64,000 nt of DNA from a bacterium (GTDB lineage Bacteria; Zhuqueibacterota; Zhuqueibacteria; Residuimicrobiales; Krinioviventaceae). The stretch spans positions 1 through 64,000 of the forward strand of contig CAXXMD010000002.1 in assembly GCA_963675755.2 (NCBI GenBank), read 5' to 3'. Shown piece by piece: positions 5,066 to 61,436 of the stretch. Numbering within the stretch: the stretch's first letter is position 1; each line of letters opens with the position of its first letter. The position numbers were made by a program, and so were the translations under genes. The notes below the pieces were generated by a model, which ran no database searches, was not told where the DNA came from, and was given only the letters and a program-made list of their open reading frames with translations.

Positions 5066-6418
5066 GTTGTGGTTGGTTTACAAGATCAGGTTTAAAACAG
5101 TAGTTATCGAACAGGCGTTGTATACCGGTCTGTTGTGGTTGGTTTACAAGATCAGGTTTAAAACAGTCAAGTGGTTGAGGATAGCAGGCAGTTTAGGGTT
5201 GTGGTTGGTTTACAAGATCAGGTTTAAAACAGTGGTAAATCAATTGCTGTTAGTTATAATAGGTTGTGGTTGGTTTACAAGATCAGGTTTAAAACAGTCA
5301 AGATCACATATTTATCATTGGTTTCATTGTTGTGGTTGGTTTACAAGATCAGGTTTAAAACAGTAAAAATTTGAAAGCGCCGACAGGGCAGAGTGTTGTG
5401 GTTGGTTTACAAGATCAGGTTTAAAACAGTATGTCAGTGCAAAAGAATTTCATATTACTTGTTGTGGTTGGTTTACAAGATCAGGTTTAAAACAGTAAAA
5501 CCAACGGTTTTGCCTTTAGCCTTTGGGTTGTGGTTGGTTTACAAGATCAGGTTTAAAACAGTAAATAATCCAGACCGTTATCATAATCTGGTGTTGTGGT
5601 TGGTTTACAAGATCAGGTTTAAAACAGTCCTTTGCTGGTTATTGGGTTATGCTTGGTTGTTGTGGTTGGTTTACAAGATCAGGTTTAAAACAGTATCTTA
5701 GCATATACCCAGTTGTTGTTGTATGTTGTGGTTGGTTTACAAGATCAGGTTTAAAACAGTTTTGTTTTCTTTTGCCGGAATCCGTTTGTGGTTGTGGTTG
5801 GTTTACAAGATCAGGTTTAAAACAGTTATATATGGTAAATGGAACGGATGCTGCATGTTGTGGTTGGTTTACAAGATCAGGTTTAAAACAGTATGGATGG
5901 TTTTCAAATCTTATAAATTATAGTTGTGGTTGGTTTACAAGATCAGGTTTAAAACAGTTTCCTGATGAAAATGGATTATATGCCAGATGTTGTGGTTGGT
6001 TTACAAGATCAGGTTTAAAACAGTTTTCTGCAAGGCTTGTAAGTGAAGTTTTTGTTGTGGTTGGTTTACAAGATCAGGTTTAAAACAGTCCAGTTGCAGC
6101 TTTGCCACCGGTGATATAGGTTGTGGTTGGTTTACAAGATCAGGTTTAAAACAGTCCTCGGTCATGGCATTCTGATAGTCTTTGGGTTGTGGTTGGTTTA
6201 CAAGATCAGGTTTAAAACAGTAGTGATAATTCAACAGCCTCGGCGGTTACTGTTGTGGTTGGTTTACAAGATCAGGTTTAAAACAGTCCATCAGTATTTA
6301 CATCCATCCATGCGATGTTGTGGTTGGTTTACAAGATCAGGTTTAAAACAGTAAATTATACTTGTAAACTTGCTATTACTAGGTTGTGGTTGGTTTACAA
6401 GATCAGGTTTAAAACAGT
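5066..6418 (+). CRISPR. Type II-C CRISPR array, 21 identical 36-nt repeats, 20 spacers (17 x 30 nt, 3 x 29 nt)
   Basis: Repeat GTTGTGGTTGGTTTACAAGATCAGGTTTAAAACAGT at 5066, 5132, 5198, 5263 ... 6317, 6383; adjacent to cas2; complementary to the tracrRNA. Confidence 0.99.
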
Positions 6419-6520
6419 ACGTCCGCTATAACCCCCTGTTTTGGGGGTATTTACAGGCATTTTCGGGGAAATAAACCACCCCAAATGTGCCTTTGGCGGA
6501 CAAATTCTGTTCGTTTTTTG

Positions 6521-6850
6521 TTAAAACATTTCCAATTGCTGGCCCCCACTGGGCGGGGGAACGGCCTTTCGGCGTTCAAATGTCTGTATTTGACTGAATT
6601 GTTTGTCCGTTACGCGTAATATACTGACCTGTCCCTTGGGCGGCAGGGCCTTTTCTACCCGTTTACTGTGTATATTAGAGTTTTCTGAACTGGCACAATG
6701 CCTTAAATAGACGGAATATTGCATTTGTGTGAATCCGTCTTTTAATAAATACTTGCGAAAACGGGTATAGTTTTTCCTGTCGGTTTTTGTTTTGGTGGGC
6801 AGGTCAAAAAAGACTACCAGCCACATAATTCGCCACGGATTTAATTGCAT
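6521..6850 (-). CDS. cas2: CRISPR-associated endonuclease Cas2
   Basis: MWLVVFFDLPT...FRKYLLKDGFTQMQYSVYLRHC...VTDKQF, typical type II Cas2. Confidence 0.97.
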   Translation of the reverse strand: MQLNPWRIMWLVVFFDLPTKTKTDRKNYTRFRKYLLKDGFTQMQYSVYLRHCASSENSNIHSKRVEKALPPKGQVSILRVTDKQFSQIQTFERRKAVPPPSGGQQLEMF

Positions 6851-6868
6851 TTTTTTATCAATTTTTTG

Positions 6869-7756
6869 TTAAAACGAAGGGTAAACCGGTCTTTTTTGCC
6901 CTTCGGTAAAGCACCGTTTAACCGATGCTGCTGTTCTTGCCGCCGCAAGGTGAAGAGGCTTTACTTCGCCCTGCATCATTACGCCCGTTGCCGGTATTTC
7001 CAATAGTATTTTTTTCAATTCCGGGGTCAGGTTGCCAATGTCCGGTTCTTCCTGGGCCATGTTCCACACCATATCGTCAACAAAGGGACGGTAAGGTTCC
7101 ATAATGTCATCCGCTAACGGAAACGGATTATTGCGGTTATGGTGGTGCACACCAAGCATGGGCAGTAATCCCGCTCCACACAGAGCCCTTGCTATAACCC
7201 CGCGCAAAATCGCGTATCCGTAATTCAATAAATTGTTGGGCGGTTTTCCGTAACGGTGCCGTTTAAAGCGGTACGGATCAAACAACAATTGCCAATAGAG
7301 TTTGGCTGCCGCCGCTTCCCGGTTGGTTACGTCTCCGCTTTGCACCTCTAACGCAAGATCGCGCAGGGGATTATCGGTTGCTCCCACACGGTCAAGCAGG
7401 GCCGCCTGATTCAATATTTTTGAGCGAATGGTAGCCTGCCAAATGCGTTTGTGCGTGGGAACAGGTGCGTTGATCTGCGCTCTGAACGATTCTGTCTGGG
7501 CGTGGTTGCCTGCCATGGGTAAAAACATGCCCGCGGGCATGTGGGTTTCATCGGTGGTAATTACCATTACGTTATGAAACATGAGCTCGTTCAAAGCGTA
7601 ATGCGATATGGTAATACCAAAGTGGTCAAGCACAATAAAACCCAGATCTTCAAGCGGCACGGTTACGTTTTTTTCATCTTGGCGCTCTATGACAAGCTGA
7701 AGGTCCTTAACCCGCAAACGGGCTGGATTGCCAAAATAAAGTGTCCGTTTAATCAT
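6869..7756 (-). CDS. cas1: CRISPR-associated endonuclease Cas1 (type II)
   Basis: MIKRTLYFGNP, VPLEDLG, NREAAAA, NNLLNYGYAILR, GVHHHN, LADDIMEPYRP; start overlaps the cas9 stop. Confidence 0.97.
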   Translation of the reverse strand: MIKRTLYFGNPARLRVKDLQLVIERQDEKNVTVPLEDLGFIVLDHFGITISHYALNELMFHNVMVITTDETHMPAGMFLPMAGNHAQTESFRAQINAPVPTHKRIWQATIRSKILNQAALLDRVGATDNPLRDLALEVQSGDVTNREAAAAKLYWQLLFDPYRFKRHRYGKPPNNLLNYGYAILRGVIARALCGAGLLPMLGVHHHNRNNPFPLADDIMEPYRPFVDDMVWNMAQEEPDIGNLTPELKKILLEIPATGVMMQGEVKPLHLAAARTAASVKRCFTEGQKRPVYPSF

Positions 7757-10700
7757 GGCACATCTCGATTTTGCCTAAAGGATTAATTTTGATTTTAATT
7801 CCAGTTATTGTATTGGGATTAGGTCTCAACACACCAGGATCAGCTTCACCACTTAAAGATATTGTATGATGTCGTAATGTGATTTGTTTACTAATTTTTT
7901 GAATTCTATATAATTTAGTTGTTAGTGATAATATGTCCGGGTTTTCCCAATCCACATCCTGCGGTTTTGTATCTACCAGAAAAATATCATTAATTTCCAA
8001 AGACATGACAAATTCGGGGTATTGCTCTTCACGGGGTTGTTTGTTTATAATTGGCAGTCCTTGTTTTTTACGCTGTACTGCTTCAAACAAGGTTATAACA
8101 TACCCCGTTCTTTTTTTACCGTCACGGGTTGCAAATATTTCTATATGATGGTTGTTACCCGGCTCTACAAATAATTTATGATCTTTGTACAATTGTATCA
8201 TATTGCTGGTTGGTATTTTTACCCTAACACTTTTGATCTTGTTGCCGGTATTGGGGTGCATGACAGGTTCGGTAAACGCGTCTTTGGGGATTTTGAATTT
8301 ACCAGATGTGTCTATACCTTTTTCATGCAAACGCTCAAGTATGAGCTGCCGTGTTTCGCTGTTTACTATATTGGTAATCATTTTAGGGGTTAGCGCTTCA
8401 ATCTGTTTTCTGACCACATACACAGCTTTACCGCTTTCAGGATCTGTGATTTGTCCGTAATTGGTTTCCTCGTGCAGTTTACCACGCGGGCGGTTGCGTT
8501 TATGAAACGAAACCAGAATGTTATTGACTGATTCTTCCGCATGATTGTGAAAATGGTCCCACGGCATAGGAAACCGATGATCTGACGCTTTAACATATCT
8601 GGCATCAAGATTGTATTTTTGATAGGTGCTGAGGGTGCGCATCATTGACTGGGTAGTGTTGGCTATAACCAATGCGTCTATGGCATGGTGGCGGTGGTCA
8701 TCCCTGGTTTTGATTTTAATATCTCCTGAAAGAATATCATTCAAACCCCACAAGTATCTCAACTTGGCCGTTGCGCCCCCTTTAATAACATGTACTTTGG
8801 GGCAAATTTGTTTCAGATATTTTGATGCCTCCCTTGAAATATAGGCTGTATCATTGAGTTGTTTGTGAAAAAATTCTTCTGATAATGTTTTATCTACATC
8901 TTGAAGTTGGAACTTTGTCAACTTGCCGTTACGCTTTCCGTTTGTTTTGAATTTTTTTACTCTTTCAACCATAAATTCATATTCCGGTAAATGCCCAAAG
9001 GCTTCAAAGGGGGTTTTATTGCTCTTTTTCAGATTATAATCCTTACGGCACAAGGTTTTATTGGCATAGCTGTCATCAAGACTGCGGCTGTAAGGGATTA
9101 TGTGCTCTATTTCATATTCACCATTATATAGATCGGTAAATCCTATTCTGTCCCCGGTATAGGGGTCAATTTCGTTACTTTCCTGCCAAAGCAGATATTT
9201 AATTACATCATCACGCCCGGGATCAATATTGTTCATCTCATTTTGCAGTCTGATTTTAATTGCGTCTCTTTCGCGTTGACGTTGAATGTTTTCTATTCTA
9301 ATCTGTTCACGTCTGTCTTTGGGCATTTTAAGCTCTCGTGCAAGTTCTACTCTTATTATGTCCGGTTGACCATGTTCCTGAATAATTGTATTTACAACTT
9401 TTTTTAATTGAAACATGGTTTGCTGAACAATAGGGTTGCGAACGTTGGGAGGATCATCTAAATAATCTTGTATTTCAATATCATTTATTTTTGAATGATG
9501 ATAGCCCGCGTTTAACGCGGCTTCGTCGTATCTCAGGCTGGTTTCCAGTTCAGGAATGAGCTTTTTCATAGCCTTGTTAGATAACCTGCCGTATCCGTTA
9601 TTTGGCCCGCTTTCCATTGTGGTTTTCATTAGACGATCTATCTGTTTATCATCCAGATTCCATTTTTCTTTGGCGTATTTTTTTAACCAGTCATCATCGT
9701 TTGAAAAATGGATTGTGTGCCAGATATAATAGATATAATCCTCAGACATGCTTGCATATCTGTCTTTACCAAATATTTGTTTTATTTCAAATCCTGTAAT
9801 ATTACCCAATAACTTGTCAAGATCAAGATTGATTACAGCGTCATCTTCTAATCCCAATATCTTGTGAAGGGTATCCATTTTTACTTCTTTAGCTTCCTTG
9901 AGCTTATTGATGAGAATTTCACGTTCCTGTGGATTTAGCTGTTCATTTACCCGTGAACTGTCTGTGACATGGATACGATTTACCTGTTCCAGAATTCTAA
10001 AATATTGAAAGACCGGGGAGCTTTTTGGTGAGCAGCGTTTCTTGGGTTCAAACGTACAATACCCAATTGTATGTTTCTGACTTTTTAATTTTCTTTGATA
10101 AAAAATAATTTCTTCAATTTCTTTTTTTACCTGATCTGTTAATTGCTCAGGATAATACTTTTGCTGTTTTAACCACAGTGCGTCAAATTCATCTTTATAC
10201 CATTTACGTAATGTATATCGGCTTCTTCGTCTCTGTTCAGGGTCATTGATATCTATAGAAGCCAAATATTGCCCCAAGGTTTGATATTTATTGTCTTTCA
10301 TTTTTTCTTTAGCTTCATCAATGCCATGTACATGTCCGCTGCCTTTGAAAATCGCGCCATCTTCTTTTGAAGCTGTTTTCCGGTTAGATTTAAAACCCCT
10401 TCGTTGATTAATATGAAAGAGCGCTCGTCCCAATTCATATAATTCCAGTTTTTCTGACAAGCCTTTATTTCTGAGCTCATATGGATCATTGTCTTTAAAA
10501 TAATCAACGTAATCAGTTTCTGTCACGGGAAAGAGGTTGTGTTTTTTTAATATTTTAACCAGCAGATCCCGCCGCATTTTATATCGTGAATTTCTTCTTC
10601 GTGCCCCTCTGGCGTCTCGTCTGTCTTTGTTTTTTGATACTTCACTACCCGTTGTATTTCTATTTATACCTTCCTGAAAAATGCGAACCCCGGAATTTAT

Positions 10701-10772
10701 AATTTCTTTATTTTCAATCAATGCCCAACCAATTGAATTTGGCCCTAAATCCAATCCTAAAATGCGTGACAT
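7749..10772 (-). CDS. cas9: Compact type II-C Cas9 (1007 aa from ATG 10772)
   Basis: RuvC-I LGLDLGPNSIGWA, Arg-rich bridge helix, RuvC-II IRVELARE, HNH EIEHIIPYSRSLDDSYANKTL...N..K.N.TP, RuvC-III HHAIDA; no csn2 or cas4, hence II-C. Confidence 0.97.
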   Translation of the reverse strand: MSRILGLDLGPNSIGWALIENKEIINSGVRIFQEGINRNTTGSEVSKNKDRRDARGARRRNSRYKMRRDLLVKILKKHNLFPVTETDYVDYFKDNDPYELRNKGLSEKLELYELGRALFHINQRRGFKSNRKTASKEDGAIFKGSGHVHGIDEAKEKMKDNKYQTLGQYLASIDINDPEQRRRSRYTLRKWYKDEFDALWLKQQKYYPEQLTDQVKKEIEEIIFYQRKLKSQKHTIGYCTFEPKKRCSPKSSPVFQYFRILEQVNRIHVTDSSRVNEQLNPQEREILINKLKEAKEVKMDTLHKILGLEDDAVINLDLDKLLGNITGFEIKQIFGKDRYASMSEDYIYYIWHTIHFSNDDDWLKKYAKEKWNLDDKQIDRLMKTTMESGPNNGYGRLSNKAMKKLIPELETSLRYDEAALNAGYHHSKINDIEIQDYLDDPPNVRNPIVQQTMFQLKKVVNTIIQEHGQPDIIRVELARELKMPKDRREQIRIENIQRQRERDAIKIRLQNEMNNIDPGRDDVIKYLLWQESNEIDPYTGDRIGFTDLYNGEYEIEHIIPYSRSLDDSYANKTLCRKDYNLKKSNKTPFEAFGHLPEYEFMVERVKKFKTNGKRNGKLTKFQLQDVDKTLSEEFFHKQLNDTAYISREASKYLKQICPKVHVIKGGATAKLRYLWGLNDILSGDIKIKTRDDHRHHAIDALVIANTTQSMMRTLSTYQKYNLDARYVKASDHRFPMPWDHFHNHAEESVNNILVSFHKRNRPRGKLHEETNYGQITDPESGKAVYVVRKQIEALTPKMITNIVNSETRQLILERLHEKGIDTSGKFKIPKDAFTEPVMHPNTGNKIKSVRVKIPTSNMIQLYKDHKLFVEPGNNHHIEIFATRDGKKRTGYVITLFEAVQRKKQGLPIINKQPREEQYPEFVMSLEINDIFLVDTKPQDVDWENPDILSLTTKLYRIQKISKQITLRHHTISLSGEADPGVLRPNPNTITGIKIKINPLGKIEMCHD

Positions 10773-10811
10773 AATTCCCTCCAAAAATTTTATTAAAAAT
10801 AATTTTTTTTC

Positions 10812-10840
10812 TTGCTTTTATATGCTGAAAATGATATAAT
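10812..10840 (+). promoter_or_regulatory. tracrRNA promoter
   Basis: TTGCTT-N17-TATAAT with extended -10 (TGaTATAAT), divergent from cas9. Confidence 0.7.
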
Positions 10841-10846
10841 AATAAA

Positions 10847-10936
10847 GATATCTAACCTGATCTTGTGTGACTTTTCCACAATAAGGATTTTTCACGCAGG
10901 TAATACCATCCTCCGACTTTGCCGGAGGTTTTTTTT
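10847..10936 (+). ncRNA. tracrRNA (~90 nt; 5' end approximate)
   Basis: Anti-repeat AACCTGATCTTGT (10854-10866) perfectly pairs repeat nt 15-27; CCACAAT (10876-10882) pairs repeat nt 1-7; then AAGG nexus-like motif and terminator CCTCCG-N7-CGGAGG-T8. Confidence 0.9.
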
Positions 10937-11071
10937 GCCCATTTATTAATAAATAACCCCTTAATGTTTGACCCCTGTTTATATTAAAACTATCCCTATT
11001 ATATATTAATCAAAAAGTTAAAAGTTGCAAGACTTTTTTAAATCCCATTCTTGTAAAAAATTGTATCTCCT

Positions 11072-11140: not shown

Positions 11141-12403
11141 ATGAAAAAGATGTTTAAATTTGTTATTCCGTTGATGTTGATCGGCGCCGCGCTAGGATTC
11201 ACCCTCATGAAACCTTTGCATGGTAATGGCCAGGCTGCATACCAATTCAAAGAAATTACAAAAGGTGATGTTGTCAATACCGTATCCAGCACAGGTACAT
11301 TGGAAGCGGTCAGTACCGTTGAAGTGGGTACCCAGGTGTCTGGTATTATTGACAAGCTCTATGTGGACTTTAACGATATTGTGAAAAAAGGCCAACTTTT
11401 AGCTGTATTGGATACAGTGCTGTTGAATGCTTCATTAAAGGACGCACAGGCCAATATGGAAAAAGCCGAAGCTCAATATGAACTGGCCCAGGCTGATCTT
11501 GATCGCTATAAACCCATGTTTGAAAAGGGATTGATTTCTGAATCCGAGTTTTTAACAACACAGGTATCCGTCAAAACCGAACGCGCGAATTTAAAATCCG
11601 CAGAAGTCGCATTACAACGTGCAACCCAGAATTTAAATTACGCGTTTATCAAATCCCCAATAAACGGCACTATCATTCAGCGCAGTGTGGAAGAAGGGCA
11701 GACCGTTGCGGCTAGCATGTCTACACCTACGTTGTTTATCATTGCAGAAGATCTTTCCAAAATGGAAATCCATGCACAGGTTGATGAAAGTGATATCGGC
11801 ATGATTAAAGATGGTCAATCCGTGGAGTTTGATGTACAATCTTATCCTGATTTAAAGTTTACCGGCCAGGTCCGTCAGATCCGTTTACAACCAACAACCG
11901 AATCCAATGTTGTAACATATACAGTGGTTGTAGATACTGAAAATAAAGATAATATTCTATTGCCAGGTATGACAGCAACTATAGATTTTATTATAGAAGA
12001 GAGCAGGGATGTTTTATTAGTTCCCAACATTGCCTTGCGTTATCAACCGTCTGAAGATGAATTAAATGCTGTAATGGAATCTATGCCTAAACCAGGTGAA
12101 GGTGGACCCGGTGGTCCGGCTCCTGAAGGTATGGAAAATAAACCGCCCCAGGGTGAAGGTGCTCCTCCAATGGGTGCAGAGCCCCCAGCAGATATGGGAC
12201 ACGTATGGTATTTAAAAGATGGTAAACTGGCAATGGCCATGTTCAAAGCCGGTGCTACCGATGGCAAATTTACCGAGATCGTTGCAAGTCGTGAATTGAA
12301 AAAAGGTGTTCAGGTGATTTCCGGTAGAAGCAATTTTGACGAGCAAGCTCTCAAAGAGGCAGCTCAGCAGCGACAAGGTGGCGGACCACCAAGGCCTTTT
12401 TAA
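11141..12403 (+). CDS. MacA-like periplasmic adaptor subunit
   Basis: [40 protein letters not shown] motifs. Confidence 0.9.
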
Positions 12404-12441
12404 AAAAGTTTGTTGATATTGATGGTATTGGAGAACATATT

Positions 12442-13182
12442 ATGAAGACTGTAATTGAAACCAGAAATCTTGTAAAAACATATACAATGGGACAAGTATC
12501 GGTCCATGCATTAAAAGGTGTGAATTTGACTGTAGAGGAAGGCGAGTTTGTCGCAATAATGGGCTCTTCTGGCTCTGGTAAATCTACATTGATGAATCTG
12601 CTTGGTTGTTTGGATTCACCTACCAGTGGTGATTATTATCTGGATGGTAAAAATGTAAACGATATGACCAAAGATGAATATGCAGATATTCGCAATCAGA
12701 AAATTGGATTTGTCTTTCAGGGATTTAACCTGTTACCGCGTACCACTGCTTTAGATAATGTTGAACTTCCTTTGGTATATGATCGAACCAAGCGTGTCAA
12801 GAATCCACGCGAAGCCTCAATAAAAGCATTGGAAATGGTAGGACTGGGAGACAGGATTGATCATGAACCGAACCAATTGTCTGGTGGGCAACAGCAGCGC
12901 GTTGCTGTTGCACGTGCATTGGTTACAAATCCGTCCCTTATTCTGGCAGATGAACCAACCGGTAATCTGGATACAAAGACTTCTGTTGATATTATGGCCC
13001 TGTTTCAGGAATTGAATGATCAGGGGATTACAATAATTCTTGTTACACATGAAGAAGATATAGCATTATATTCTAAACGGATAGTGACCATGCGTGACGG
13101 ATTAATTGTAAAAGACGAGTCTGTTTCAAATCGTTCTTTGATACCATCTACAAATGAAAATGTTTATGTAACAGATTTGTAG
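12442..13182 (+). CDS. MacB/LolD-type ABC transporter ATP-binding protein
   Basis: Walker [33 protein letters not shown]. Confidence 0.95.
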
Positions 13183-13191
13183 AGGTGGGTT

Positions 13192-14412
13192 ATGTTGCAA
13201 TTGAAAAAAATTATTGTTGCGTCTATGAACAGCATTTTAAAGAATAAAATGCGGAGTTTATTGACTTCATTGGGTATTATTATTGGTGTAGCGTCAGTCA
13301 TTGTTATGGTTGCTATTGGAAAAGGTGCATCGGCAAGAATTCAAAGTCATATCGCATCCATGGGATCAGATATGTTAATGGTGCATCCCGGAGCAAGCAG
13401 AATGGGTGGTGTAAATCGCGGTGCTGGTAGTTTTAATCGATTAACTTTTAAAGATGTGGAAGAAATACAAGACCAGGCGCAGTATTTAAGTTATGTTTCG
13501 CCGCAGGTTCGTGTCAGCGGACAGATCATTGGTGGCGGAAATAACTGGTCTACATCTGTACTGGGTGTAGGTCCGGATTATTTGAAAATACGTGTTTATG
13601 AAATTGAATCCGGTGAAATGTTTACCGATAAAGATGAACGCGTACGAAGCAAGGTAGCAATATTAGGTAAAACTGTAGCAGACGAATTATTCCCGGATCA
13701 GGACCCCATAGGTGAAAAAGTACGTATAAACAAAACTCCGTTTACAGTTATTGGTGTACTCAAGGAAAAAGGAACGACGGGTTTTGGCGGAGATCAGGAT
13801 GATGTAATTCTGGCCCCTTCTAAAACTGTATTATTTCGTTTAAAAGGCGGGCAGTATATTGACGAGATCTATACAAGTGCATTATCAAGCAATTATATGT
13901 ATCGTGCTGAACAAGAGATAAAACAAGTATTACGTCGTACACACAGGCTTGATGATAATGAGGATGATGACTTTACAGTGAGAAATCAAGCCGAAATGAT
14001 TGACATGATGTCATCAACCACCCAAACCATGACCATGCTTTTGGGCTCAATTGCTGCGGTATCACTGCTGGTAGGTGGCATTGGAATCATGAATATCATG
14101 CTGGTATCTGTAACAGAAAGGACCCGCGAGATTGGCATTCGGTTATCCATTGGTGCACGTGGAAGAGACATTATGACCCAGTTTCTTGCTGAATCTATGA
14201 TGCTGAGTGTAATCGGAGGATTAATAGGAATTCTGTTCTCTTTTGGGGTTTCAGCGATCCTGGTCAAGTTCACTACGTTTAGTACTTTGATAAGTATGCC
14301 AATAGTTATGCTGGCATTTTCATTCGCCTGTTTTGTTGGTGTCTTTTTTGGCTATTATCCAGCTCAAAAAGCGGCTCAGATGAATCCAATTGATGCTTTG
14401 CGCTATGAATAA
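13192..14412 (+). CDS. MacB-type ABC transporter permease
   Basis: RSLLTSLGIIIGVASV, GGIGIMNIMLVSVTERTREIGIR, PIDALRYE. Confidence 0.95.
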   Translation: MLQLKKIIVASMNSILKNKMRSLLTSLGIIIGVASVIVMVAIGKGASARIQSHIASMGSDMLMVHPGASRMGGVNRGAGSFNRLTFKDVEEIQDQAQYLSYVSPQVRVSGQIIGGGNNWSTSVLGVGPDYLKIRVYEIESGEMFTDKDERVRSKVAILGKTVADELFPDQDPIGEKVRINKTPFTVIGVLKEKGTTGFGGDQDDVILAPSKTVLFRLKGGQYIDEIYTSALSSNYMYRAEQEIKQVLRRTHRLDDNEDDDFTVRNQAEMIDMMSSTTQTMTMLLGSIAAVSLLVGGIGIMNIMLVSVTERTREIGIRLSIGARGRDIMTQFLAESMMLSVIGGLIGILFSFGVSAILVKFTTFSTLISMPIVMLAFSFACFVGVFFGYYPAQKAAQMNPIDALRYE

Positions 14413-14431
14413 GTTATAAAAAAAGGAGACC

Positions 14432-14860
14432 ATGATGAAACTTTTTAAAAGTTTTAATGTATCATTAATAGCAGCAGTTTTGTTGCTTGGAAATGTTTGT
14501 TTCCCTCAACCGGGTGGTGGTCCCGGAGGTCCTGGTGGCCCAGGTAAACCAACTGATGAACAGATTAAAGAACGAGTAAAAGAAATGGCAGAATCTGTTG
14601 GTTTGTCAGATGAACAGATTGAAAAAATTGTAGCTATACAAAAAGAACATTTTCAAACCATGGATGAATCAAGACAAAATTCATCAGGTGATCGTTCTAA
14701 AATGCGTGAAACAATGGACAAGATGTTTGAAGAAATGAATACGAAAATTAAAGCAGTAATGACAGACGAACAATATAAAAAATATCAGGAATATGAGAAA
14801 AGCCATCGTAGAGGTCCAGGAGGACCCGGTGGTGGAGGTGAACCTCCATCTCAAAGATGA
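14432..14860 (+). CDS. Secreted Spy/CpxP-like (LTxxQ-type) helical protein with Gly/Pro-rich tails
   Basis: Signal peptide; GLSDEQ and VMTDEQ motifs; Met/charged helical core. Confidence 0.6.
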   Translation: MMKLFKSFNVSLIAAVLLLGNVCFPQPGGGPGGPGGPGKPTDEQIKERVKEMAESVGLSDEQIEKIVAIQKEHFQTMDESRQNSSGDRSKMRETMDKMFEEMNTKIKAVMTDEQYKKYQEYEKSHRRGPGGPGGGGEPPSQR

Positions 14861-14871
14861 TGCCCCTCATC

Positions 14872-14930
14872 GCGCTGATACCTCCTTCATCAGTGCAAAC
14901 CGGGAGATTTTAATATCTCCCGGATATTTT
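14872..14930 (+). ncRNA. Anti-SD hairpin + terminator, copy 1 (3' UTR of the ABC operon)
   Basis: Stem GCGCTGAT/ATCAGTGC with loop ACCTCCTTC, then CCGGGAGAT-N6-ATCTCCCGG and a T-rich tail. Confidence 0.55.
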
Positions 14931-14985
14931 TAATTTTTTTATTTTTACAAAAATATGTTTTGATTTTACATATTTTTTTTATAAT

Positions 14986-15014
14986 TTGTCATGTTTTAAT
15001 ATTGATAATATAAT
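14986..15014 (+). promoter_or_regulatory. Sigma70 promoter of a stand-alone small RNA
   Basis: TTGTCA-N17-TATAAT, followed ~110 nt later by an intrinsic terminator with no substantial ORF between. Confidence 0.6.
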
Positions 15015-15020
15015 TTTTTT

Positions 15021-15138
15021 TAAAAAATGGTATCGGTTGGCGAATGTGGACGCTATTAAGACTGAACCATATAAAAAACGCTAATACCTCCTTCATTAGC
15101 GTTAACCGGGAGATTTTTTAATCTTCCGGTTTTTTTTT
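15021..15138 (+). ncRNA. Putative ~118-nt sRNA containing anti-SD hairpin copy 2
   Basis: 5' stem (ATGGT...ACCAT enclosing TGGCG/CGCTA), stem AACGCTAAT/ATTAGCGTT with loop ACCTCCTTC, terminator AACCGGGAGAT/ATCTTCCGGTT plus T-run. Confidence 0.6.
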
Positions 15139-15337
15139 GTCCATCCTAATAGTTTTGATATTTATAAATGTAATAAAAATTTGAAATTTTTTGATTTGTA
15201 TTTTTTCTTGTGCAATCTCTATATACAAAAAATATCAACAGTAAATTCATTTTACATCTGTTTATATTGTTTTACTTTTTAATTTGGAAATTATTTATTA
15301 TTATTAAATAATCACAATTTAAAACCAAGGGGATGAA

Positions 15338-17977
15338 ATGAAATCTATTTACAGTATTATTGTTTGTGTAATCGTATGTATTTTTTTAATGAATCATGAT
15401 CTTTATGCAAGACAACTAATCGTGCCCGATCAATATTCAACCATTGCTCAAGCTGTTACTGATGCTGCTGCAAAAGATACTGTTTTTATAAAAAATGGTG
15501 TCTATACGGAGCATTACATTAAAGTTGAAAAATGTATCGTTATCCGGGGTGAGAGCAGAGATTCCACAATATTAAAAGGTGATGGTTTCACCGAAGAAGG
15601 ATTTATGTTGGATGTGGAATTTACTGAAGGTACAACAGTTGATAGCTTGATATTTGAAAACTTGACCATAAAAGATTATTGGAGATCACTTGAGAATTAT
15701 CTTCCTTCTTACTATCCCGAATCAAAGCAGGCTGTTATGATTATTCAAAATTGTAATTTTGTCAATTGCGGTACACGTGCAATTGCAATTCCCGAATGGT
15801 CAAAAACTTTATATATTCAAAACAATACATTTGATAGTTGTGGTTCCGCACTTGTTCTTGGTTCATCGAGTGCATTTGTCAAGTATATACTGAATAATCG
15901 ATTTGTTAACAACTATGTTGCCATAGAACTGAAAGCGCATAATGCTATAATTAGTAATAATATTATTAAAAATTCTCAATATAATGGCATTTTAGAATCA
16001 TCAACCACCCAAAACAACAAGATTGTCAATAATACGTTTGTAGGGAATTCTGGCTGGGGTCTTCATATTGATAATGGTTTCCATACAACAGAAATCAAGA
16101 ACAATATATTTTACTCAAATGAATCAGGTTTAACTGTAGCATCTGACCAAAGCAGTGTTGACTATAATGCATTCTATATGAATGGTGAAGATTATTGGGG
16201 TGGAAGCAAAAAAGGGGAACATGATGTGTTTGATGATCCCATGTTTGCTGATACAACTAATTATTCCATTGCTTCTGGTTCCCCCTGCATTGATGCTGGA
16301 GACCCATCATTTGATTATTCTAATGAACCGGATTATAATGGTCTATGTGTTAATATGGGTGCTTGGGGAAATACCCCGTTTGCCTCCATTTCCAACCCAG
16401 CTATTGCAATTGATGATACTTTGCAGAATAGTGAACATTTGGTTCAGCAAAATGATACATCTTTTGTACTGGTCCATAATCCGGGAACTTCTCGACTCAA
16501 TATTTTGCAGCATCAAATCAATGGAGAAGGATTTACCAGGATAAATGATAATCCAACATTTATATTGCCGGATTCTGTTGTAAAATTTAAATTTTTGTTC
16601 AACCCTTTAAAAACCAAAGAGTATTCAGGAGAACTGGTGTTTAACTCTAATTCATTACAGGAACCTGAAGTTAAAGTCAAAATTATTCGAAAAGGAGTGC
16701 TAAGGGGGCATTTTGCAGGTGTTTTGAATAAAACAAACTCTCCGTACAAGGTTACAGGCCATGTTTATGTGGATTCATTAAAACATTTATCTATAAACGC
16801 AGGGGCAGAATTATTATTCGAACAGGATTGTAGAATATTTGTTAAAAGCGGTGGAAGGATTTCACTTGCCGGTTATCCAGCAGATTCTGTCATATTACGG
16901 CCTGTAAATAGTCAAATTGAGGGATGGGGAGGAATTGAGATTCAAAACAGTCAAAACAGTGAGATCCGTTATACATCATTTTATGGAGCAAAGAACACCC
17001 AATATAATGGCGGAGCATTACTGTTAGATCAATCGGATATGATTATTGAGCATTGTTTGTTCAAAGATTGTCGTGCAGGTGGAGACGGGGGAGCAATCGC
17101 CATTACACATTCACAAGTGCAATTGCGATCTTGTAAGTTTGATAATAATATGAATGGTGCAGGAAATGGGATTGTGAGTGCAAGGCATTCGAATACAAGT
17201 ATTGAAAATTGTGAATTTAATAATAGTGAGCAATTGGTAACAGATCTTTTACATTTTGATACGGGAAGCTTGGTATTTAATTATAATCTCATACATTCAT
17301 TATCTACTCATTGGATTATTTGGTGTTATCTTGAAAATCTTTCTTTTAATAACAATACTATTGTAAATAATTCTGATCCTGATTCAAAAGGGGATTTTGT
17401 TTTTTATATTAAAAGTAATGGAGAAATACACAATAATATTATTAAAAATTTTAAAGATAATGAATTAAGCCTAACAGATAGTACATGTTTTTTTAGTCAT
17501 AATTTATGTGATTATAAATATGAAGGTGATGGGAACATTATAGGTGATCCGGGTTTTGTGGGAGGAGATCCTTTTGATTACCATTTACAGGAAAATTCGG
17601 TTTGCATTGATGCGGGGATTGATGTGGGATTTTCATGGGTTGGTGAAGCAGCTGATCTGGGGTGTTACGAGTATGATCCCACCACTGTTTTTGTAGAAAA
17701 TTTAAAAACACCTATGAATTATAAATTACAACAAAATTATCCCAATCCTTTTAATCCCAATACTCATATTTCATTTTCATTACCCGTGATGACCAAAGTT
17801 CGTCTTGAGATATTTAATATGTTAGGGCAAAGCGTTGCGGTTTTAACGGATAAATACTATGATGCCGGTCACTATACAATCCCCTGGAATGGAAGAGCAT
17901 TTCCCAGTGGAATTTACTTTTATACAATGACAACTGACACACACAAGGTAACACGAAAAATGGTATTAATTGAATAA
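15338..17977 (+). CDS. Secreted right-handed beta-helix repeat protein with Ig-like domain and C-terminal sorting (T9SS-type) domain
   Basis: VPDQYSTIAQAV start, Asn-rich parallel beta-helix repeats, SPCIDAGDP, LQQNYPNPFNP...SGIYFY...RKMVLI. Confidence 0.8.
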   Translation: MKSIYSIIVCVIVCIFLMNHDLYARQLIVPDQYSTIAQAVTDAAAKDTVFIKNGVYTEHYIKVEKCIVIRGESRDSTILKGDGFTEEGFMLDVEFTEGTTVDSLIFENLTIKDYWRSLENYLPSYYPESKQAVMIIQNCNFVNCGTRAIAIPEWSKTLYIQNNTFDSCGSALVLGSSSAFVKYILNNRFVNNYVAIELKAHNAIISNNIIKNSQYNGILESSTTQNNKIVNNTFVGNSGWGLHIDNGFHTTEIKNNIFYSNESGLTVASDQSSVDYNAFYMNGEDYWGGSKKGEHDVFDDPMFADTTNYSIASGSPCIDAGDPSFDYSNEPDYNGLCVNMGAWGNTPFASISNPAIAIDDTLQNSEHLVQQNDTSFVLVHNPGTSRLNILQHQINGEGFTRINDNPTFILPDSVVKFKFLFNPLKTKEYSGELVFNSNSLQEPEVKVKIIRKGVLRGHFAGVLNKTNSPYKVTGHVYVDSLKHLSINAGAELLFEQDCRIFVKSGGRISLAGYPADSVILRPVNSQIEGWGGIEIQNSQNSEIRYTSFYGAKNTQYNGGALLLDQSDMIIEHCLFKDCRAGGDGGAIAITHSQVQLRSCKFDNNMNGAGNGIVSARHSNTSIENCEFNNSEQLVTDLLHFDTGSLVFNYNLIHSLSTHWIIWCYLENLSFNNNTIVNNSDPDSKGDFVFYIKSNGEIHNNIIKNFKDNELSLTDSTCFFSHNLCDYKYEGDGNIIGDPGFVGGDPFDYHLQENSVCIDAGIDVGFSWVGEAADLGCYEYDPTTVFVENLKTPMNYKLQQNYPNPFNPNTHISFSLPVMTKVRLEIFNMLGQSVAVLTDKYYDAGHYTIPWNGRAFPSGIYFYTMTTDTHKVTRKMVLIE

Positions 17978-31215: not shown

Positions 31216-31953
31216 TTATTTGATTAAATTAAACAATTGAGTTAAAATTTCTGTTGCTTTGCCTTTTAAAAATATATCTGTTATTGTATTTGTAAATGCT
31301 GAAGGTGCTGCGTTTATTTCAATTATTGTACTTCCGGTTTCTTTTGCCTGGTAAGGAATATAGCACGCAGGCATAACTTCTCCGGTTGTTCCAATAACCA
31401 ATACCACATCTGCAAGTTCTGCCTGAATAAATGATTCATCATTAACGTGCGAAGGAATCATCTCTCCAAAGAATATAAAATCCGGCTTTAATAGTCCGCC
31501 ACATATAGGACAAGAAGGGGGGAGTACTTTTAAATTAACATCCGGTTGTCTTGATTTTACAAGACAATTTTGACACTCGAAGCGTTTGGTAGTACCATGG
31601 AATTCAAGCACATGTTTGCTGCCGGCATCCTGATGCAGGTTGTCAATATTTTGGGTAATTATGGATTTAATAATACCTTTTTCCTCAAGTTCAGCCAGTT
31701 TGATATGAGCGGCATTGGGCTTTGCATTACCCATAAACTCGTAAAATATTGTGTAAATTTTTTCCCATGATTCTTGAGGGTGTGAGTTAAAGAAATCGAG
31801 TTCAAGGCAGGTGGGGTCGTATTTTGACCATAATCCATCCGGGCCTCTAAAAGGAGGTATGCCACTTTCTACTGAAATCCCTGCTCCTGTAAATACAATG
31901 CAATGTTTAGATGTTGCTACTAAATCTGCTGCTTTTTGAATATCGTTCTGCAT
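31216..31953 (-). CDS. cobB: NAD-dependent protein deacylase (sirtuin)
   Basis: TGAGISVESGIPPFRG, TQNID, HG, two CxxC, KPD..FFGE, GTTG. Confidence 0.9.
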   Translation of the reverse strand: MQNDIQKAADLVATSKHCIVFTGAGISVESGIPPFRGPDGLWSKYDPTCLELDFFNSHPQESWEKIYTIFYEFMGNAKPNAAHIKLAELEEKGIIKSIITQNIDNLHQDAGSKHVLEFHGTTKRFECQNCLVKSRQPDVNLKVLPPSCPICGGLLKPDFIFFGEMIPSHVNDESFIQAELADVVLVIGTTGEVMPACYIPYQAKETGSTIIEINAAPSAFTNTITDIFLKGKATEILTQLFNLIK

Positions 31954-45103: not shown

Positions 45104-45122
45104 TTACAATCTTTTCTAAAAT

Positions 45123-45159
45123 AAAAAACCCGGTTATCTAAAGACAACCGGGTTTTTTT
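45123..45159. terminator. Bidirectional intrinsic terminator
   Basis: A6-CCCGGTT...AACCGGG-T7 between convergent genes. Confidence 0.8.
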
Positions 45160-45175
45160 ATAATCAATATATAAT

Positions 45176-57758: not shown

Positions 57759-58892
57759 ATGTCCGATAACAAAATACCAGAGAATGGTCCTGTTTCAGAA
57801 CAGCAATTGCAAAATTCAGAATTACAGGCCCTTTTAAATTTTCAAACCGAAATTTTTAATTCATTGCCTGCCCACCTTGTTGTCATTGATGATGAGTATA
57901 ATATTTTAAATTATAATCAAGCTGTTGCTGAAATGGCAGGCAACAAGAGTGTTGTTGGCAAAAATCTTTTTGTTTCATTAGAGTTTTATCAGTCTGAAGC
58001 TTTGAACAAAGTTTTGACTGATTTTATTAATAGCAATAAAACAGTTATTCATATAACATTAGATCATCCACACAAGATGGGTGAAAAATATGTCCATTCT
58101 ATATCCAGATTAAAAGACATTGCTGGTCTGAAAGCTTTTCTGTTGCATTCGACATTGTATGATGGCCAAGACAACAATCAGCTAAATGATTTTATTCAGG
58201 ATAAATTTATAAGCCTTGGCGCTTTTGCCGGTAAAGTAGCGCATGATATAAATAATCCGCTATCAGTAATTCTTACACGAATCGATTTTTTACAATCTAT
58301 GGACCTGGAAAATGCCATTGAAGAGGGTGATGTTGAAATCGTTGAAGAGATAGGTATTATTCAACGCCAGGCTCAGAGGATTTTTGATATATTAGATAAA
58401 ATTGGTGCATTGCAGATGCATGCAAAAGAAGTACCGGCAGAATGTGATGTAACTGAAATTGTGACCCGTGCTGTTACCATTTCTGAATTTCAGCGTCCCC
58501 ATAAAACAGTGCATGCTGTTAAAGAGCTAACAGAAGGATTGCCCCGAATGGTTTGTAATGAAATAAAACTTGAACGGGCTATTAATGAATTGTTAAAAAA
58601 TGCATTTGAAGCGGTTAGTGAAAAGGGGGATGTATCTATTAAATTAACCTTTGAAGAACCTGAATACCGTCTTGAAATTAAAGACAGTGGTCCTGGAATA
58701 CCACCCGAAGATATCGGCAAGGTTTTTGATCCGTTTTTTACTACCAAACAAGGTGTAAAAGGAGCAGGTTTGGGATTAACAATAGCATATGCTGCCGCAC
58801 TTGCTCATAATGGTCGTATTGAAATAAATAGTGTTCCCGAATCAGGTACAACCATGACCCTGGTTTTGAAACGTAATTCAGTAAATGAATAA
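57759..58892 (+). CDS. PAS sensor histidine kinase (NtrB-like)
   Basis: AHDINNPL, NAFEA, DSGPGI, PFFTTK, GLGL. Confidence 0.92.
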   Translation: MSDNKIPENGPVSEQQLQNSELQALLNFQTEIFNSLPAHLVVIDDEYNILNYNQAVAEMAGNKSVVGKNLFVSLEFYQSEALNKVLTDFINSNKTVIHITLDHPHKMGEKYVHSISRLKDIAGLKAFLLHSTLYDGQDNNQLNDFIQDKFISLGAFAGKVAHDINNPLSVILTRIDFLQSMDLENAIEEGDVEIVEEIGIIQRQAQRIFDILDKIGALQMHAKEVPAECDVTEIVTRAVTISEFQRPHKTVHAVKELTEGLPRMVCNEIKLERAINELLKNAFEAVSEKGDVSIKLTFEEPEYRLEIKDSGPGIPPEDIGKVFDPFFTTKQGVKGAGLGLTIAYAAALAHNGRIEINSVPESGTTMTLVLKRNSVNE

Positions 58893-58929
58893 CCAACAGG
58901 TTTTATATAAACATAAAGGTTGATTGTAG

Positions 58930-59985
58930 ATGTCAACAGTAATAGCCAATGATAAGCATGTTTCGGGTTTAATTCTTGAATTAGATCCAAAGCAGGCTGT
59001 TGAATCATTCTCTGGATCTCTTGAAAATTGTGATTCACTTTTGAGTGATATAAAGCCCGGTATGTCTTTGTCTGAAGCGTTAAAACGTCTTTGGAATGTT
59101 GATATTGAAGACATGTGTAACGATGCTTATCTGCATGGTAGAACTGCCAGTTATGAAATTCCTGTTCAGTGCAATACAGTTCAACATTGGTATTTAATTA
59201 CTGCATCACCCCGTGTAAGCAATCAAATAATAAATGGCGTATCCCTGAATGTTAGAGATAATACGCTTGTCAAACGAAATGAACGTCAGTTATTACTGCA
59301 CGATAAAATGGGGAATATTGCGCTGCTTGCGTCTCAGGTTGCACACAAGCTCAACAATCCTTTGGCAGCGGTATTGAACCATGTTGGTAGTTTGCTGGTA
59401 ACTGATTTGAGCGATGAGAATCTATTCAGAGTCAAGAGTAAACTGGAATTGATGCAGGAACAGATATATTCCATGTCTGTGATTACCAATGCACTCGTGG
59501 CATTCAGTAAAGAATCCGGAGTAAATTTTAGGTCTCTGGATGTAAATGAGATTGTTCAAAAATCAGTTGAACTGTCTCATTTACTTCAAATAAAGAGTAA
59601 CATCACATACCACGTAACGTTGTTACCCAATTTACCCCAAGTTTTGGGAAATGAAATTACGCTTGAACAAAGTTTTATTAATATCATTCGAAATGCCCTG
59701 GAAGCAATGCCGGATGGAGGTGAATTTACAATTACCACCAATTTGGATCCGCTTTCGAATGATTATATTTGTGTCTCTTTTCAAGATACAGGTTATGGTA
59801 TTGAAAAACAGTATCAGGATCAGGTTTTTGATCCATTTTTCAAGACCAAAGATGAAAATCATTCTGGTTTGGGTTTATCAATAAGCTATGGTATTATTGC
59901 AAATCACAACGGAAGTATTGAATTTAACAGTGAACCGGATAAAGGTACAAAAGTAACTGTACTCTTGCCGGTAAACCGTAAATAA
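58930..59985 (+). CDS. Second NtrB-like histidine kinase
   Basis: AHKLNNPL, NALEAM, DTGYGI, PFFKTK, GLGL. Confidence 0.9.
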   Translation: MSTVIANDKHVSGLILELDPKQAVESFSGSLENCDSLLSDIKPGMSLSEALKRLWNVDIEDMCNDAYLHGRTASYEIPVQCNTVQHWYLITASPRVSNQIINGVSLNVRDNTLVKRNERQLLLHDKMGNIALLASQVAHKLNNPLAAVLNHVGSLLVTDLSDENLFRVKSKLELMQEQIYSMSVITNALVAFSKESGVNFRSLDVNEIVQKSVELSHLLQIKSNITYHVTLLPNLPQVLGNEITLEQSFINIIRNALEAMPDGGEFTITTNLDPLSNDYICVSFQDTGYGIEKQYQDQVFDPFFKTKDENHSGLGLSISYGIIANHNGSIEFNSEPDKGTKVTVLLPVNRK

Positions 59986-60005
59986 AATGTTAAAGGAATA
60001 AACAC

Positions 60006-61436
60006 ATGAGTGATATAAACAACTCGGATTCTAACAAGTTGTTAATAATTGATGATGACAAGAGCGTACTGGATTCCATTGTATCTTTATTAAAAAATTC
60101 AAACTATCAATGTTTAACTGCACCTTCAACCGCTGCCGGTGTGAATCTTATAAAAACAGAACAGCCCCTGGTTGTTTTAACCGATCTGAAAATGGAACGA
60201 GATTCATCTGGTATTGAGGTGCTTGAAGAAGCCAAAAAAATTGATCCTGAGCTGGTGGTTATTCTTTATACAGCGTATGGCAATGTTCCTGCTGCTGTAG
60301 ATGCGTTTAAAAAGGGTGCTTTTGATTTTATACAAAAAGTTCAAACCCACCATGATATTCTGGTACCCATAGATCGTGCTTTTAAATTTGCCCGTATTCA
60401 GCGGGAAAATGCGTTTTTGCGCAGCAGGGTAGATCTTACTGATGACGGCAGTTTTTATGGCGCAGTGGGTACAAGTCCTACAATCCGTGAGGTTTTTGAA
60501 ACAGTCAAACGCGTTGCTCGTACCAATGCAACCGTTATGATTACCGGTGAAACCGGTACGGGAAAAGAAGTAATTGCCCGTGGATTGCATTATCACAGTC
60601 CACGTCAGAGCGAATCTTTTGTACCCGTAGCTGTTGGCACATTACCAGACAATCTGCTTGAAGGTGAATTGTTTGGACATGTTAAGGGTGCTTATACCGG
60701 TGCAACTACTGATAAACCCGGTCTGTTTGAAGCAGCAGACAAGGGAACAATCATGCTTGATGAGATTGGCGAAGTCAGTATCGAAATGCAGCACAAATTA
60801 CTGCGCGTCATTCAGGAACGTACTGTTAGAAGACTGGGAAGTGTAAAAGAACGTGATATTGATGTTAGAATTATCAGTGCAACCAACCGTGATCCTGAAG
60901 AATTGGTAAAAGCGGGTAAATTACGCGAAGATCTTTTTTATCGATTAAATGTGATCCACATCCACATTCCGCCATTGCGCGAGCGCAAAGAAGATATACC
61001 CATTCTAGCTTATCATTTCCTTAAAAAATATCGGGATATTGGTGTAGTAGAAGTTGAAAAGATTTCAAATGAAACTTTACTCTTGTTGCAGGAATATGAG
61101 TGGCCGGGTAATGTAAGACAGTTACAGGGAACAATGGAGAGAATGGTAGCATTGGCCGGCAGGCCTGAACTTCGTCCTGAAGATTTACCAGATAAAATAC
61201 GTCCTACAACCAAACGTGTTTATGTAGATACAAATGAAGAACTGGATTTTAAAACTGCCAAAGCTCGTATTACTGAAGCGTTTGAAAAACAATATATTGA
61301 AAATTTACTGGACAAGTATAACAACAACATCACCAAGGTTGCGGATGCTGCCGGTTTAAATAGAAAAACTATATATCGATTAATTGACTCCCGGAATATT
61401 AAATTCAGAGGAGTTCGAGAAGATGATGACGATTAA
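60006..61436 (+). CDS. Sigma54-dependent response regulator (NtrC/AtoC family)
   Basis: Receiver IIDDD/TD/K; GETGTGKE, ELFGH.KGAYTGA, WPGNVR; Fis-type HTH. Confidence 0.95.
   Translation: MSDINNSDSNKLLIIDDDKSVLDSIVSLLKNSNYQCLTAPSTAAGVNLIKTEQPLVVLTDLKMERDSSGIEVLEEAKKIDPELVVILYTAYGNVPAAVDAFKKGAFDFIQKVQTHHDILVPIDRAFKFARIQRENAFLRSRVDLTDDGSFYGAVGTSPTIREVFETVKRVARTNATVMITGETGTGKEVIARGLHYHSPRQSESFVPVAVGTLPDNLLEGELFGHVKGAYTGATTDKPGLFEAADKGTIMLDEIGEVSIEMQHKLLRVIQERTVRRLGSVKERDIDVRIISATNRDPEELVKAGKLREDLFYRLNVIHIHIPPLRERKEDIPILAYHFLKKYRDIGVVEVEKISNETLLLLQEYEWPGNVRQLQGTMERMVALAGRPELRPEDLPDKIRPTTKRVYVDTNEELDFKTAKARITEAFEKQYIENLLDKYNNNITKVADAAGLNRKTIYRLIDSRNIKFRGVREDDDD

Follow-up and report, generated by a model that had tools for sequence, protein, structure and literature searches.

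Small RNAs (sRNAs) that occlude Shine-Dalgarno (SD) sites are commonplace. Among described examples, the alpha-r14 or 'cuckoo' sRNAs, which include NfeR1 of Sinorhizobium meliloti, display an ultraconserved anti-SD motif in hairpin loops whose stems differ; each RNA has three hairpins, every one with CCUCCUCCC in an unpaired region (PMC10746234). A different arrangement is found in the enterobacteria, in which CpxQ is an sRNA released from the cpxP 3' UTR (PMC4817254). In the icaR mRNA of Staphylococcus aureus, a C-rich anti-SD motif in the 3' UTR acts in cis by a 5'/3' UTR interaction (PMC3868564).

Here we describe two hairpins with an anti-SD loop in a bacterial DNA stretch of 64,000 nucleotides, all of which was analyzed and which is called the window below. 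The original prediction was of a candidate new sRNA family, composed of two working siblings and linked to an envelope-stress operon. We find that the locus contains a real, structured and locally conserved element, which most likely represents a familiar kind of sRNA that has yet to be described.

Results

Two related modules follow a Spy/CpxP-like gene

Two related modules are present on the + strand, 206 nt apart, between an ORF ending at 14860 and an ORF starting at 15338 (Table 1). In both copy 1 (14872-14931) and copy 2 (15077-15138), a hairpin whose 9-nt loop reads ACCUCCUUC precedes a G+C-rich stem and a U-run. The hairpin of copy 1 begins 11 nt past the TGA stop codon (14858-14860) of the ORF at 14432-14860. 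Within the modules, the stretch 14873-14931 recurs at 15079-15137 as a direct repeat of 59 nt, with identity at 48 of the 59 positions. When both strands of the window were searched, the 13-mer ATACCTCCTTCAT occurred twice, in these two modules only, and ACCTCCTT occurred three times, at the two module sites and at 31851 on the - strand. The coordinates, the folds and the repeat agree with the prediction of an identical 9-nt loop on different stems within a duplicated hairpin-plus-terminator architecture, and the extra 5' stem that had been claimed for copy 2 folds as SL1 at 15027-15070.

The loop of the copy 2 hairpin (SL2) carries an exact copy of the 8-nt anti-SD sequence ACCUCCUU inside the open 9-nt loop. 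We take ACCUCCUU to be the anti-SD sequence of 16S rRNA, as given in textbooks; the window contains no 16S gene.

Table 1 Features of the locus and their identity to the counterpart locus in a close relative (contig OY843751.1).
Feature	Position	Strand	Sequence, basis or remark	Identical in relative
HlyD-type fusion protein gene	11141-12403	+	Pfam	
ABC ATPase gene	12442-13182	+	Pfam	
MacB-type permease gene	13192-14412	+	Pfam	
Spy/CpxP-like periplasmic protein gene	14432-14860	+	Last gene of the HlyD-ABC-MacB operon (11141-14412)	Coding part, 352/383 columns; third codon positions, 114/127 (13 differences)
Copy 1 hairpin	14872-14896	+	GCGCTGAT / ACCTCCTTC / ATCAGTGC; 8 pairs, one G.U; as arms and loop, GCGCUGAU / ACCUCCUUC / AUCAGUGC, loop 14880-14888	23/25
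Copy 1 intrinsic terminator	Stem-loop 14900-14923; with interrupted U-run 14900-14940	+	CCGGGAGAT-TTTAAT-ATCTCCCGG, then ATATTTTTAATTTTTTT	Terminator and tail (14897-14931), 27/35
Spacer	14932-15019			60/88 (28 differences, 13 gap columns)
Block TTGATT-N16-TAATTT	14960-14987	+	Alignment	Kept in both genomes
Promoter-like site TTGTCA-N17-TATAAT	14986-15014	+	Score 11/12	Not conserved
Candidate free-standing sRNA, ~115 nt	15021-15138	+	SL1, A-rich linker, SL2 (anti-SD hairpin), SL3 (terminator)	
Copy 2 5' part with SL1	15020-15076			56/58 columns
SL1, extra 5' stem-loop, copy 2 only	15027-15070	+	RNA fold	
Copy 2 hairpin (SL2)	15077-15103	+	AACGCTAAT / ACCTCCTTC / ATTAGCGTT; 9 pairs; as arms and loop, AACGCUAAU / ACCUCCUUC / AUUAGCGUU, loop 15086-15094	27/27
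Copy 2 intrinsic terminator (SL3)	Stem-loop 15104-15131, T-run to 15138	+		Terminator and tail, 30/36
Columns past the U-run (22)				10/22 (12 differences)
Beta-helix protein gene with type IX secretion sorting domain (Por_Secre_tail)	15338-17977	+	Downstream gene, Pfam	

Pfam matches and homologues upheld the gene context first proposed, in which genes for an HlyD-type fusion protein, an ABC ATPase and a MacB-type permease precede a Spy/CpxP-like gene. For the Spy-like protein, the Pfam match to Metal_resist is weak (28.6 bits, slightly below the cutoff); its homologues carry DUF4890/LTXXQ domains (PF16231/PF07813), and the JGI name is Spy/CpxP family. Elsewhere in the window (57759-61436), a sigma-54-dependent response regulator is encoded after two adjoining histidine kinase genes.

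The organism uses SD sites. In the window, 9 of the 43 GGAGG sequences and 12 of the 73 AGGAG sequences sit 4-10 nt before an ATG that opens at least 80 codons, compared with 0/43 and 1/73, respectively, at a control offset. The complementary motif CCTCC gave 0/43 in the same ATG test.

Upstream of the operon, a compact type II CRISPR-Cas9 locus occupies 5066-10937 on the - strand. It comprises cas9 (1011 aa; 7749-10784, - strand), cas1 (6869-7756), cas2 (6521-6850) and an array of ~21 repeats of 36 nt with a period of 66 (5066-6419). The + strand probably encodes the tracrRNA at ~10848-10937, where the anti-repeat AACCTGATCTTGT...CCACAA is accompanied by a terminator and a subsequent T8. The studied hairpins were considered as candidates for the tracrRNA of this system. 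The best anti-repeat match in the window (13/13) is at 10854-10866, adjoining cas9, with a terminator that extends to ~10937; inside 14861-15140, the CRISPR repeat has one 8-nt match (14992-14999, - strand) and nothing longer, and there are ~100 such 8-nt matches across the window. Since the anti-repeat and its terminator adjoin cas9 (~10848-10937), the studied hairpins are not the tracrRNA.

The modules match no named RNA family and recur in one close relative

The Spy-like protein has a single close relative in the protein database, with 83% identity, encoded on the 6,535,007-bp contig OY843751.1. The same contig also encodes a malic enzyme with 99% identity to that of the window, and the next named matches, from KSB1 and Calditrichia, are at ~70%. 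This indicates that the contig belongs to a very close relative, perhaps of the same species. Its counterpart locus is called L004 below where its own coordinates or module copies are meant.

A strict pattern, TACCTCCTTCA-N6-11-ACCGGGAG, was used to scan 185,579 species genomes, a collection in which the source genome is not included. The scan returned 31 loci, compared with ~26 estimated by chance. Folding and inspection show that 30 of these match by chance within coding sequences (from Streptomyces, Flavobacteriaceae and other taxa), and the remaining locus, L004 (OY843751.1), is a true homologue. No homologue outside this lineage was seen in the scan, although diverged homologues could escape so strict a pattern.

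A covariance model was built from four module sequences (both copies, from the window and from L004) and run unfiltered. In the 64-kb window it recovers the two copies only, at 91 and 88.7 bits, with no third copy; the next best match, at 26.6 bits, is on the opposite strand over the copy 1 terminator (14889-14957), and lower matches (for example, 45118-45171) resemble ordinary terminators. In L004, the model likewise recovers two copies. With two copies in 64 kb and one exact pattern match in the 6.5-Mb relative, the modules do not behave as a dispersed repeat of the REP or MITE kind, and the original prediction came through this possible refutation. A mobile-element origin was likewise rejected, as the plasmid collection gave no match to the modules and the phage collection gave only one spurious 37-nt match.

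No Rfam family matched anywhere in the window at gathering thresholds. At E values up to 10, the region 14700-15400 yielded only noise, with a best score of 22.1 bits against a threshold of 50, so the statement that no named family was recognized holds. Homology to enterobacterial CpxQ is accordingly not indicated by any Rfam family at threshold. Among the matches listed for literature on ACCUCCUU sRNAs and on Calditrichota small RNAs, which are a thin basis consisting of partial texts, there is no description of such an RNA. The word 'family' is weakened by its dependence on two copies in each of two very closely related genomes (malic enzymes 99% identical).

Both modules fold and leave the anti-SD loop unpaired

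Copy 1 folds with z = -7.4, and a 120-nt unit containing copy 2 folds at -39.6 kcal/mol with z = -6.1; in each case, none of 200 shuffled sequences folds equally well. The structures drawn here are the minimum-energy folds of both modules. The loop bases have an unpaired probability of at least 0.93, and this includes the read-through transcript. Pairing of the loop (CUCC) with the 5' arm of the terminator (GGAG), as a pseudoknot or an anti-terminator, was weighed by inspection and is not favored: the linker of 4-5 nt seems too short for a stem of 8-9 bp.

The differences between the stems of the two copies had been described as compensatory, G-C versus A-U. Two of the 8 pairs of helix 1 are indeed changed on both sides in this way, two are changed on one side and four are invariant. 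Across the four module sequences, pairing is preserved in all cells of helix 1, in 94% of those of helix 2 and in 97% overall, and the overall value falls to 32-46% when the partners are slid. The observed covariation score was reached by 10 of 500 column shuffles, a comparison with little power since it uses four sequences that represent essentially one paralogue split. Thus, the covariation is suggestive and short of proof. Invariance of the loop between the paralogues is not significant when taken alone (P = 0.13, given 11 differences in 59 positions).

Copy 2 is conserved as a unit and copy 1 drifts

Both copies are found in L004 after the Spy-like gene, with their order kept, which indicates that the duplication is older than the split of the two genomes. 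The copy 2 body (15020-15103) differs from its counterpart at 2 of 85 columns. In Fisher tests, this corresponds to P = 1e-7 against the spacer, P = 0.03 against the third codon positions of the Spy-like gene and P = 0.06 against its whole coding part, a contrast that relies on a locally hypervariable region and on a very close relative as the sole comparator. The island of identity has a sharp onset at 15020, the predicted 5' end, and it ends at the terminator. Within it, the only substitution in SL1 converts a U-A pair to U.G; SL3 differs in its loop and 3' arm, with the stem kept. The loop, which had been expected to be conserved in homologues, is retained at 9/9 positions in copy 2 and at 8/9 in copy 1 of L004.

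Copy 1 shows a different pattern. In L004 its loop is ACCUCCUGC, its stem contains two adjacent wobble pairs, and its terminator has a mismatch and no longer folds (z = -0.63). From these substitutions, copy 1 looks like a decaying element in the relative. The altered loop and the unfolded terminator make it doubtful that there are two sibling sRNAs that both work, as had been proposed.

Two small ORFs that overlap or adjoin the modules were also considered. A 10-codon ORF on the + strand (15028-15060) is not favored: it lacks an SD, conservation continues beyond its stop and L004 offers no informative differences. A 40-codon antisense ORF on the - strand (14751-14870), which follows the GAAGGAGGT of copy 1, is probably no gene, as the substitutions spare the Spy frame.

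The surroundings of the modules differ considerably between the two genomes. The CRISPR-Cas9 locus is absent here in the relative, whose similarity to the window begins only at 11052. The relative also lacks ~3.26 kb corresponding to window positions 11218-14477, a stretch that covers the ABC ATPase and MacB permease genes, the greater part of the fusion-protein gene and the 5' end of the gene for the Spy-like protein. At the junction, L004 positions 1241-1406 are joined to 1406-2051, with an in-frame ORF of 152 aa that combines the signal peptide of the fusion protein with the Spy-like protein. Of the proposed operon link, the connection to the Spy-like gene therefore persists in the relative, but the connection to MacAB is lost with the deletion of 11218-14477. 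The copy 2 unit is retained despite this deletion and despite a different downstream gene, which encodes an M1 peptidase in L004 (2086-4026) versus the beta-helix protein in the window. These two downstream genes align only over their last ~230 nt, the type IX sorting domain (79.9% identity), and the pair looks like the result of a cargo swap before a common sorting domain.

Termination signals are enriched and promoter signals are not

In the region 14300-15500, 3 terminator-like sites are observed, compared with 0.7 expected, and in either genome each of the two G+C-rich stems has a U-run behind it on the + strand. Promoter-like sites are at chance level in this A+T-rich DNA (8 observed, 6.1 expected). 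Copy 2 had been credited with its own TTGTCA-N17-TATAAT promoter. The site exists and scores 11/12, but such sites are not enriched, and the L004 counterpart contains indels and has TTTATA as its -35, with the original -35 and spacing both lost. The promoter part of the observation carries no statistical weight.

A second block in the spacer, TTGATT-N16-TAATTT, has a weak match to the sigma-70 consensus (7/12, counted manually). It is part of an A+T-rich block, ACAAAAA...TTTTGATTTTACATATTTTT..TAATTT (14947-14987), that is far better conserved in L004 than the remaining spacer. Judging from its sequence, a portion of this block may serve as a weak alternative promoter or bind a regulator.

Discussion

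Our tentative first choice among the explanations, drawn from sequence and predicted structure, is a free-standing sRNA of ~115 nt (15021-15138) that would occlude ribosome-binding sites, together with a decaying partial duplicate that would serve as the 3' UTR and terminator of the Spy-like gene. Copy 2 would be the core of this lineage-specific candidate small RNA gene on the + strand. Its SL2 loop would pair with GGAGG-type ribosome-binding sites of mRNAs and thereby lower their translation, and SL3 would act as its Rho-independent terminator. Transcription could start at a promoter of its own, or it could proceed by read-through of the imperfect copy 1 terminator, followed by processing. 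Copy 1, with SL2 and SL3 only, would be an older partial duplicate that now provides the Spy/CpxP-like gene with its 3' UTR and terminator. Its loop, under weaker constraint, may still be exposed, either on the Spy mRNA or on a processed 3' fragment.

A trans-acting base-pairing sRNA is expected to have, besides its own promoter, a discrete transcript and specific target sites, a 3' intrinsic terminator and a conserved single-stranded seed. The copy 2 unit has the latter two: the terminator (15104-15131 plus the T-run) is kept in the relative, and the seed is unpaired with a probability of at least 0.93 and identical at 9/9 loop positions in the one close relative. In a predicted target scan of 50 start regions in the window, the energies of the loop duplexes track generic SD strength (r = 0.74), and no specific target emerged among these regions. 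The complementarity of the loop to the operon's own ribosome-binding sites is 6 bp, by manual reading.

Alternatively, both modules could be locally copied terminators, in which the first hairpin is a passenger, neutral or stabilizing, and its anti-SD-like loop does nothing of its own. Such an explanation accounts for the good terminator signals that end both modules and for the drift of copy 1 in the relative. It is also compatible with the non-significant loop invariance between paralogues (P = 0.13), with the lack of a specific target in the window scan and with a comparator so close that identity could partly reflect lack of time. We nevertheless consider it unlikely. A terminator needs something to terminate, yet no ORF leads into copy 2; SL1 equals the hairpin in conservation (56/58 and 27/27 columns) when the flanks are only 68% and 45% identical; and helix 1 remains intact in 4/4 sequences by way of compensatory changes.

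The position of copy 1, only 11 nt past a stop codon, raises the possibility of a cis-acting 3' UTR, in which the copy 1 loop would pair with an SD on its own operon mRNA and so tune translation or stability, with copy 2 reached by read-through. Read-through into copy 2 is plausible given the interrupted U-run of copy 1 and the unfolded terminator in L004, and the icaR mRNA is a precedent (PMC3868564). However, by manual reading the loop forms 6 contiguous pairs with the ribosome-binding site of macA or of the Spy-like gene, which is no more than with any SD site, and the loop change in L004 reduces this pairing to 5. The better conserved copy is, moreover, the one farther from the gene, and we regard cis action as improbable.

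Copy 2 could also be an attenuator, with a conditional terminator placed in the 5' leader of the next gene downstream, which encodes a type IX-sorted secreted protein. Although copy 2 and the next gene are on the same strand in both genomes, and both downstream genes encode Por_Secre_tail cargo, the proteins themselves are different in the two genomes. The DNA from the terminator to the start codon is unalignable and measures 199 nt in the window versus ~33-75 nt in L004, depending on the start codon chosen. No alternative anti-terminator pairing is evident by inspection, and the DNA that separates the terminator from the gene contains A+T-rich promoter-like sites. The chance that copy 2 is an attenuator appears small.

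Another explanation concerns the ribosome more directly. As a mimic of the 16S rRNA 3' tail, the element could act as a sponge on strong SD sites in general, or it could lure away, as a decoy, a factor that recognizes the 16S 3' end. The full 8-nt ACCUCCUU in the loop and the dependence of predicted pairing on generic SD strength (r = 0.74) are consistent with such mimicry, but one small RNA would face competition from thousands of ribosomes, which makes this explanation very improbable. Hardly credible at all is a - strand feature, in which the hairpins would present a true SD (GAAGGAGGU) for a small antisense ORF or protein-binding GGA loops: a 40-codon ORF, open in both genomes, does begin 10 nt past the - strand GGAGG of copy 1, and a T-run trails the copy 2 hairpin on that strand, but the antisense ORFs differ at 6/40 residues and the overlapping Spy frame at only 1, indicating selection on the Spy frame, and behind copy 2 there are just 4 codons, 16 nt from the SD, while the folds are weaker (z = -3.9 and -3.7) and the ends of the conservation island fit a + strand unit.

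Returning to the free-standing sRNA with its partial duplicate, its significance would depend on expression. If expressed, it would be an undescribed sRNA, according to the literature search, in a poorly studied and uncultured lineage, and it would provide a second example of a Spy/CpxP-family chaperone gene coupled to a regulatory RNA. The design of the candidate RNA is unusually clean: a single open loop displays the complete anti-SD octamer. As a sibling pair seen at two stages, one fixed and one decaying, the modules would illustrate how sRNAs with a common 3' UTR module and terminator are gained and lost. Current concepts are unchanged by the candidate RNA. Stress coupling, a working sibling pair and the term 'family' exceed the evidence. 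A bolder reading of the sequence, to which we give little credence, is that a CpxQ-like arrangement evolved independently in this candidate-phylum bacterium. An RNA from the Spy/CpxP 3' UTR and a sibling gene would then place a broad anti-SD brake on translation from strong SD sites during envelope stress, by mimicking the mRNA-docking tail of the ribosome.

Comparison with known systems

Like ordinary Rho-independent terminators, both modules are closed by a G+C-rich stem and a U-run. Unlike these, the modules have another conserved hairpin, its loop fixed, ahead of the terminator, and one of the modules follows no ORF.

To our knowledge, CpxQ does not carry an anti-SD loop. In its layout, copy 1 resembles CpxQ (PMC4817254): it occupies the 3' UTR belonging to a gene of the Spy/CpxP family, 11 nt past the stop codon, and includes the terminator of that gene. 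The better conserved copy here, unlike CpxQ, is a separate downstream unit.

Like this locus, the icaR mRNA has a 3' UTR whose C-rich anti-SD motif is able to pair with an SD (PMC3868564). The icaR element acts in cis with extended pairing, whereas here only 6 bp can form with the operon's ribosome-binding sites, and there is a second, free-standing copy.

The alpha-r14 sRNAs, including NfeR1, also place the anti-SD sequence in an unpaired loop and keep this motif while the stems vary, and they are free-standing genes with terminators whose predicted targets are ribosome-binding sites, resembling the candidate unit (PMC10746234). The unit described here is not a member of the alpha-r14 or cuckoo group as defined there: it has one anti-SD loop, ACCUCCUUC, and an unrelated 5' stem rather than three CCUCCUCCC hairpins, it comes from an unrelated lineage and it has no Rfam match. 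The candidate RNA is closest in working principle to the alpha-r14/cuckoo sRNAs and closest in layout to CpxQ.
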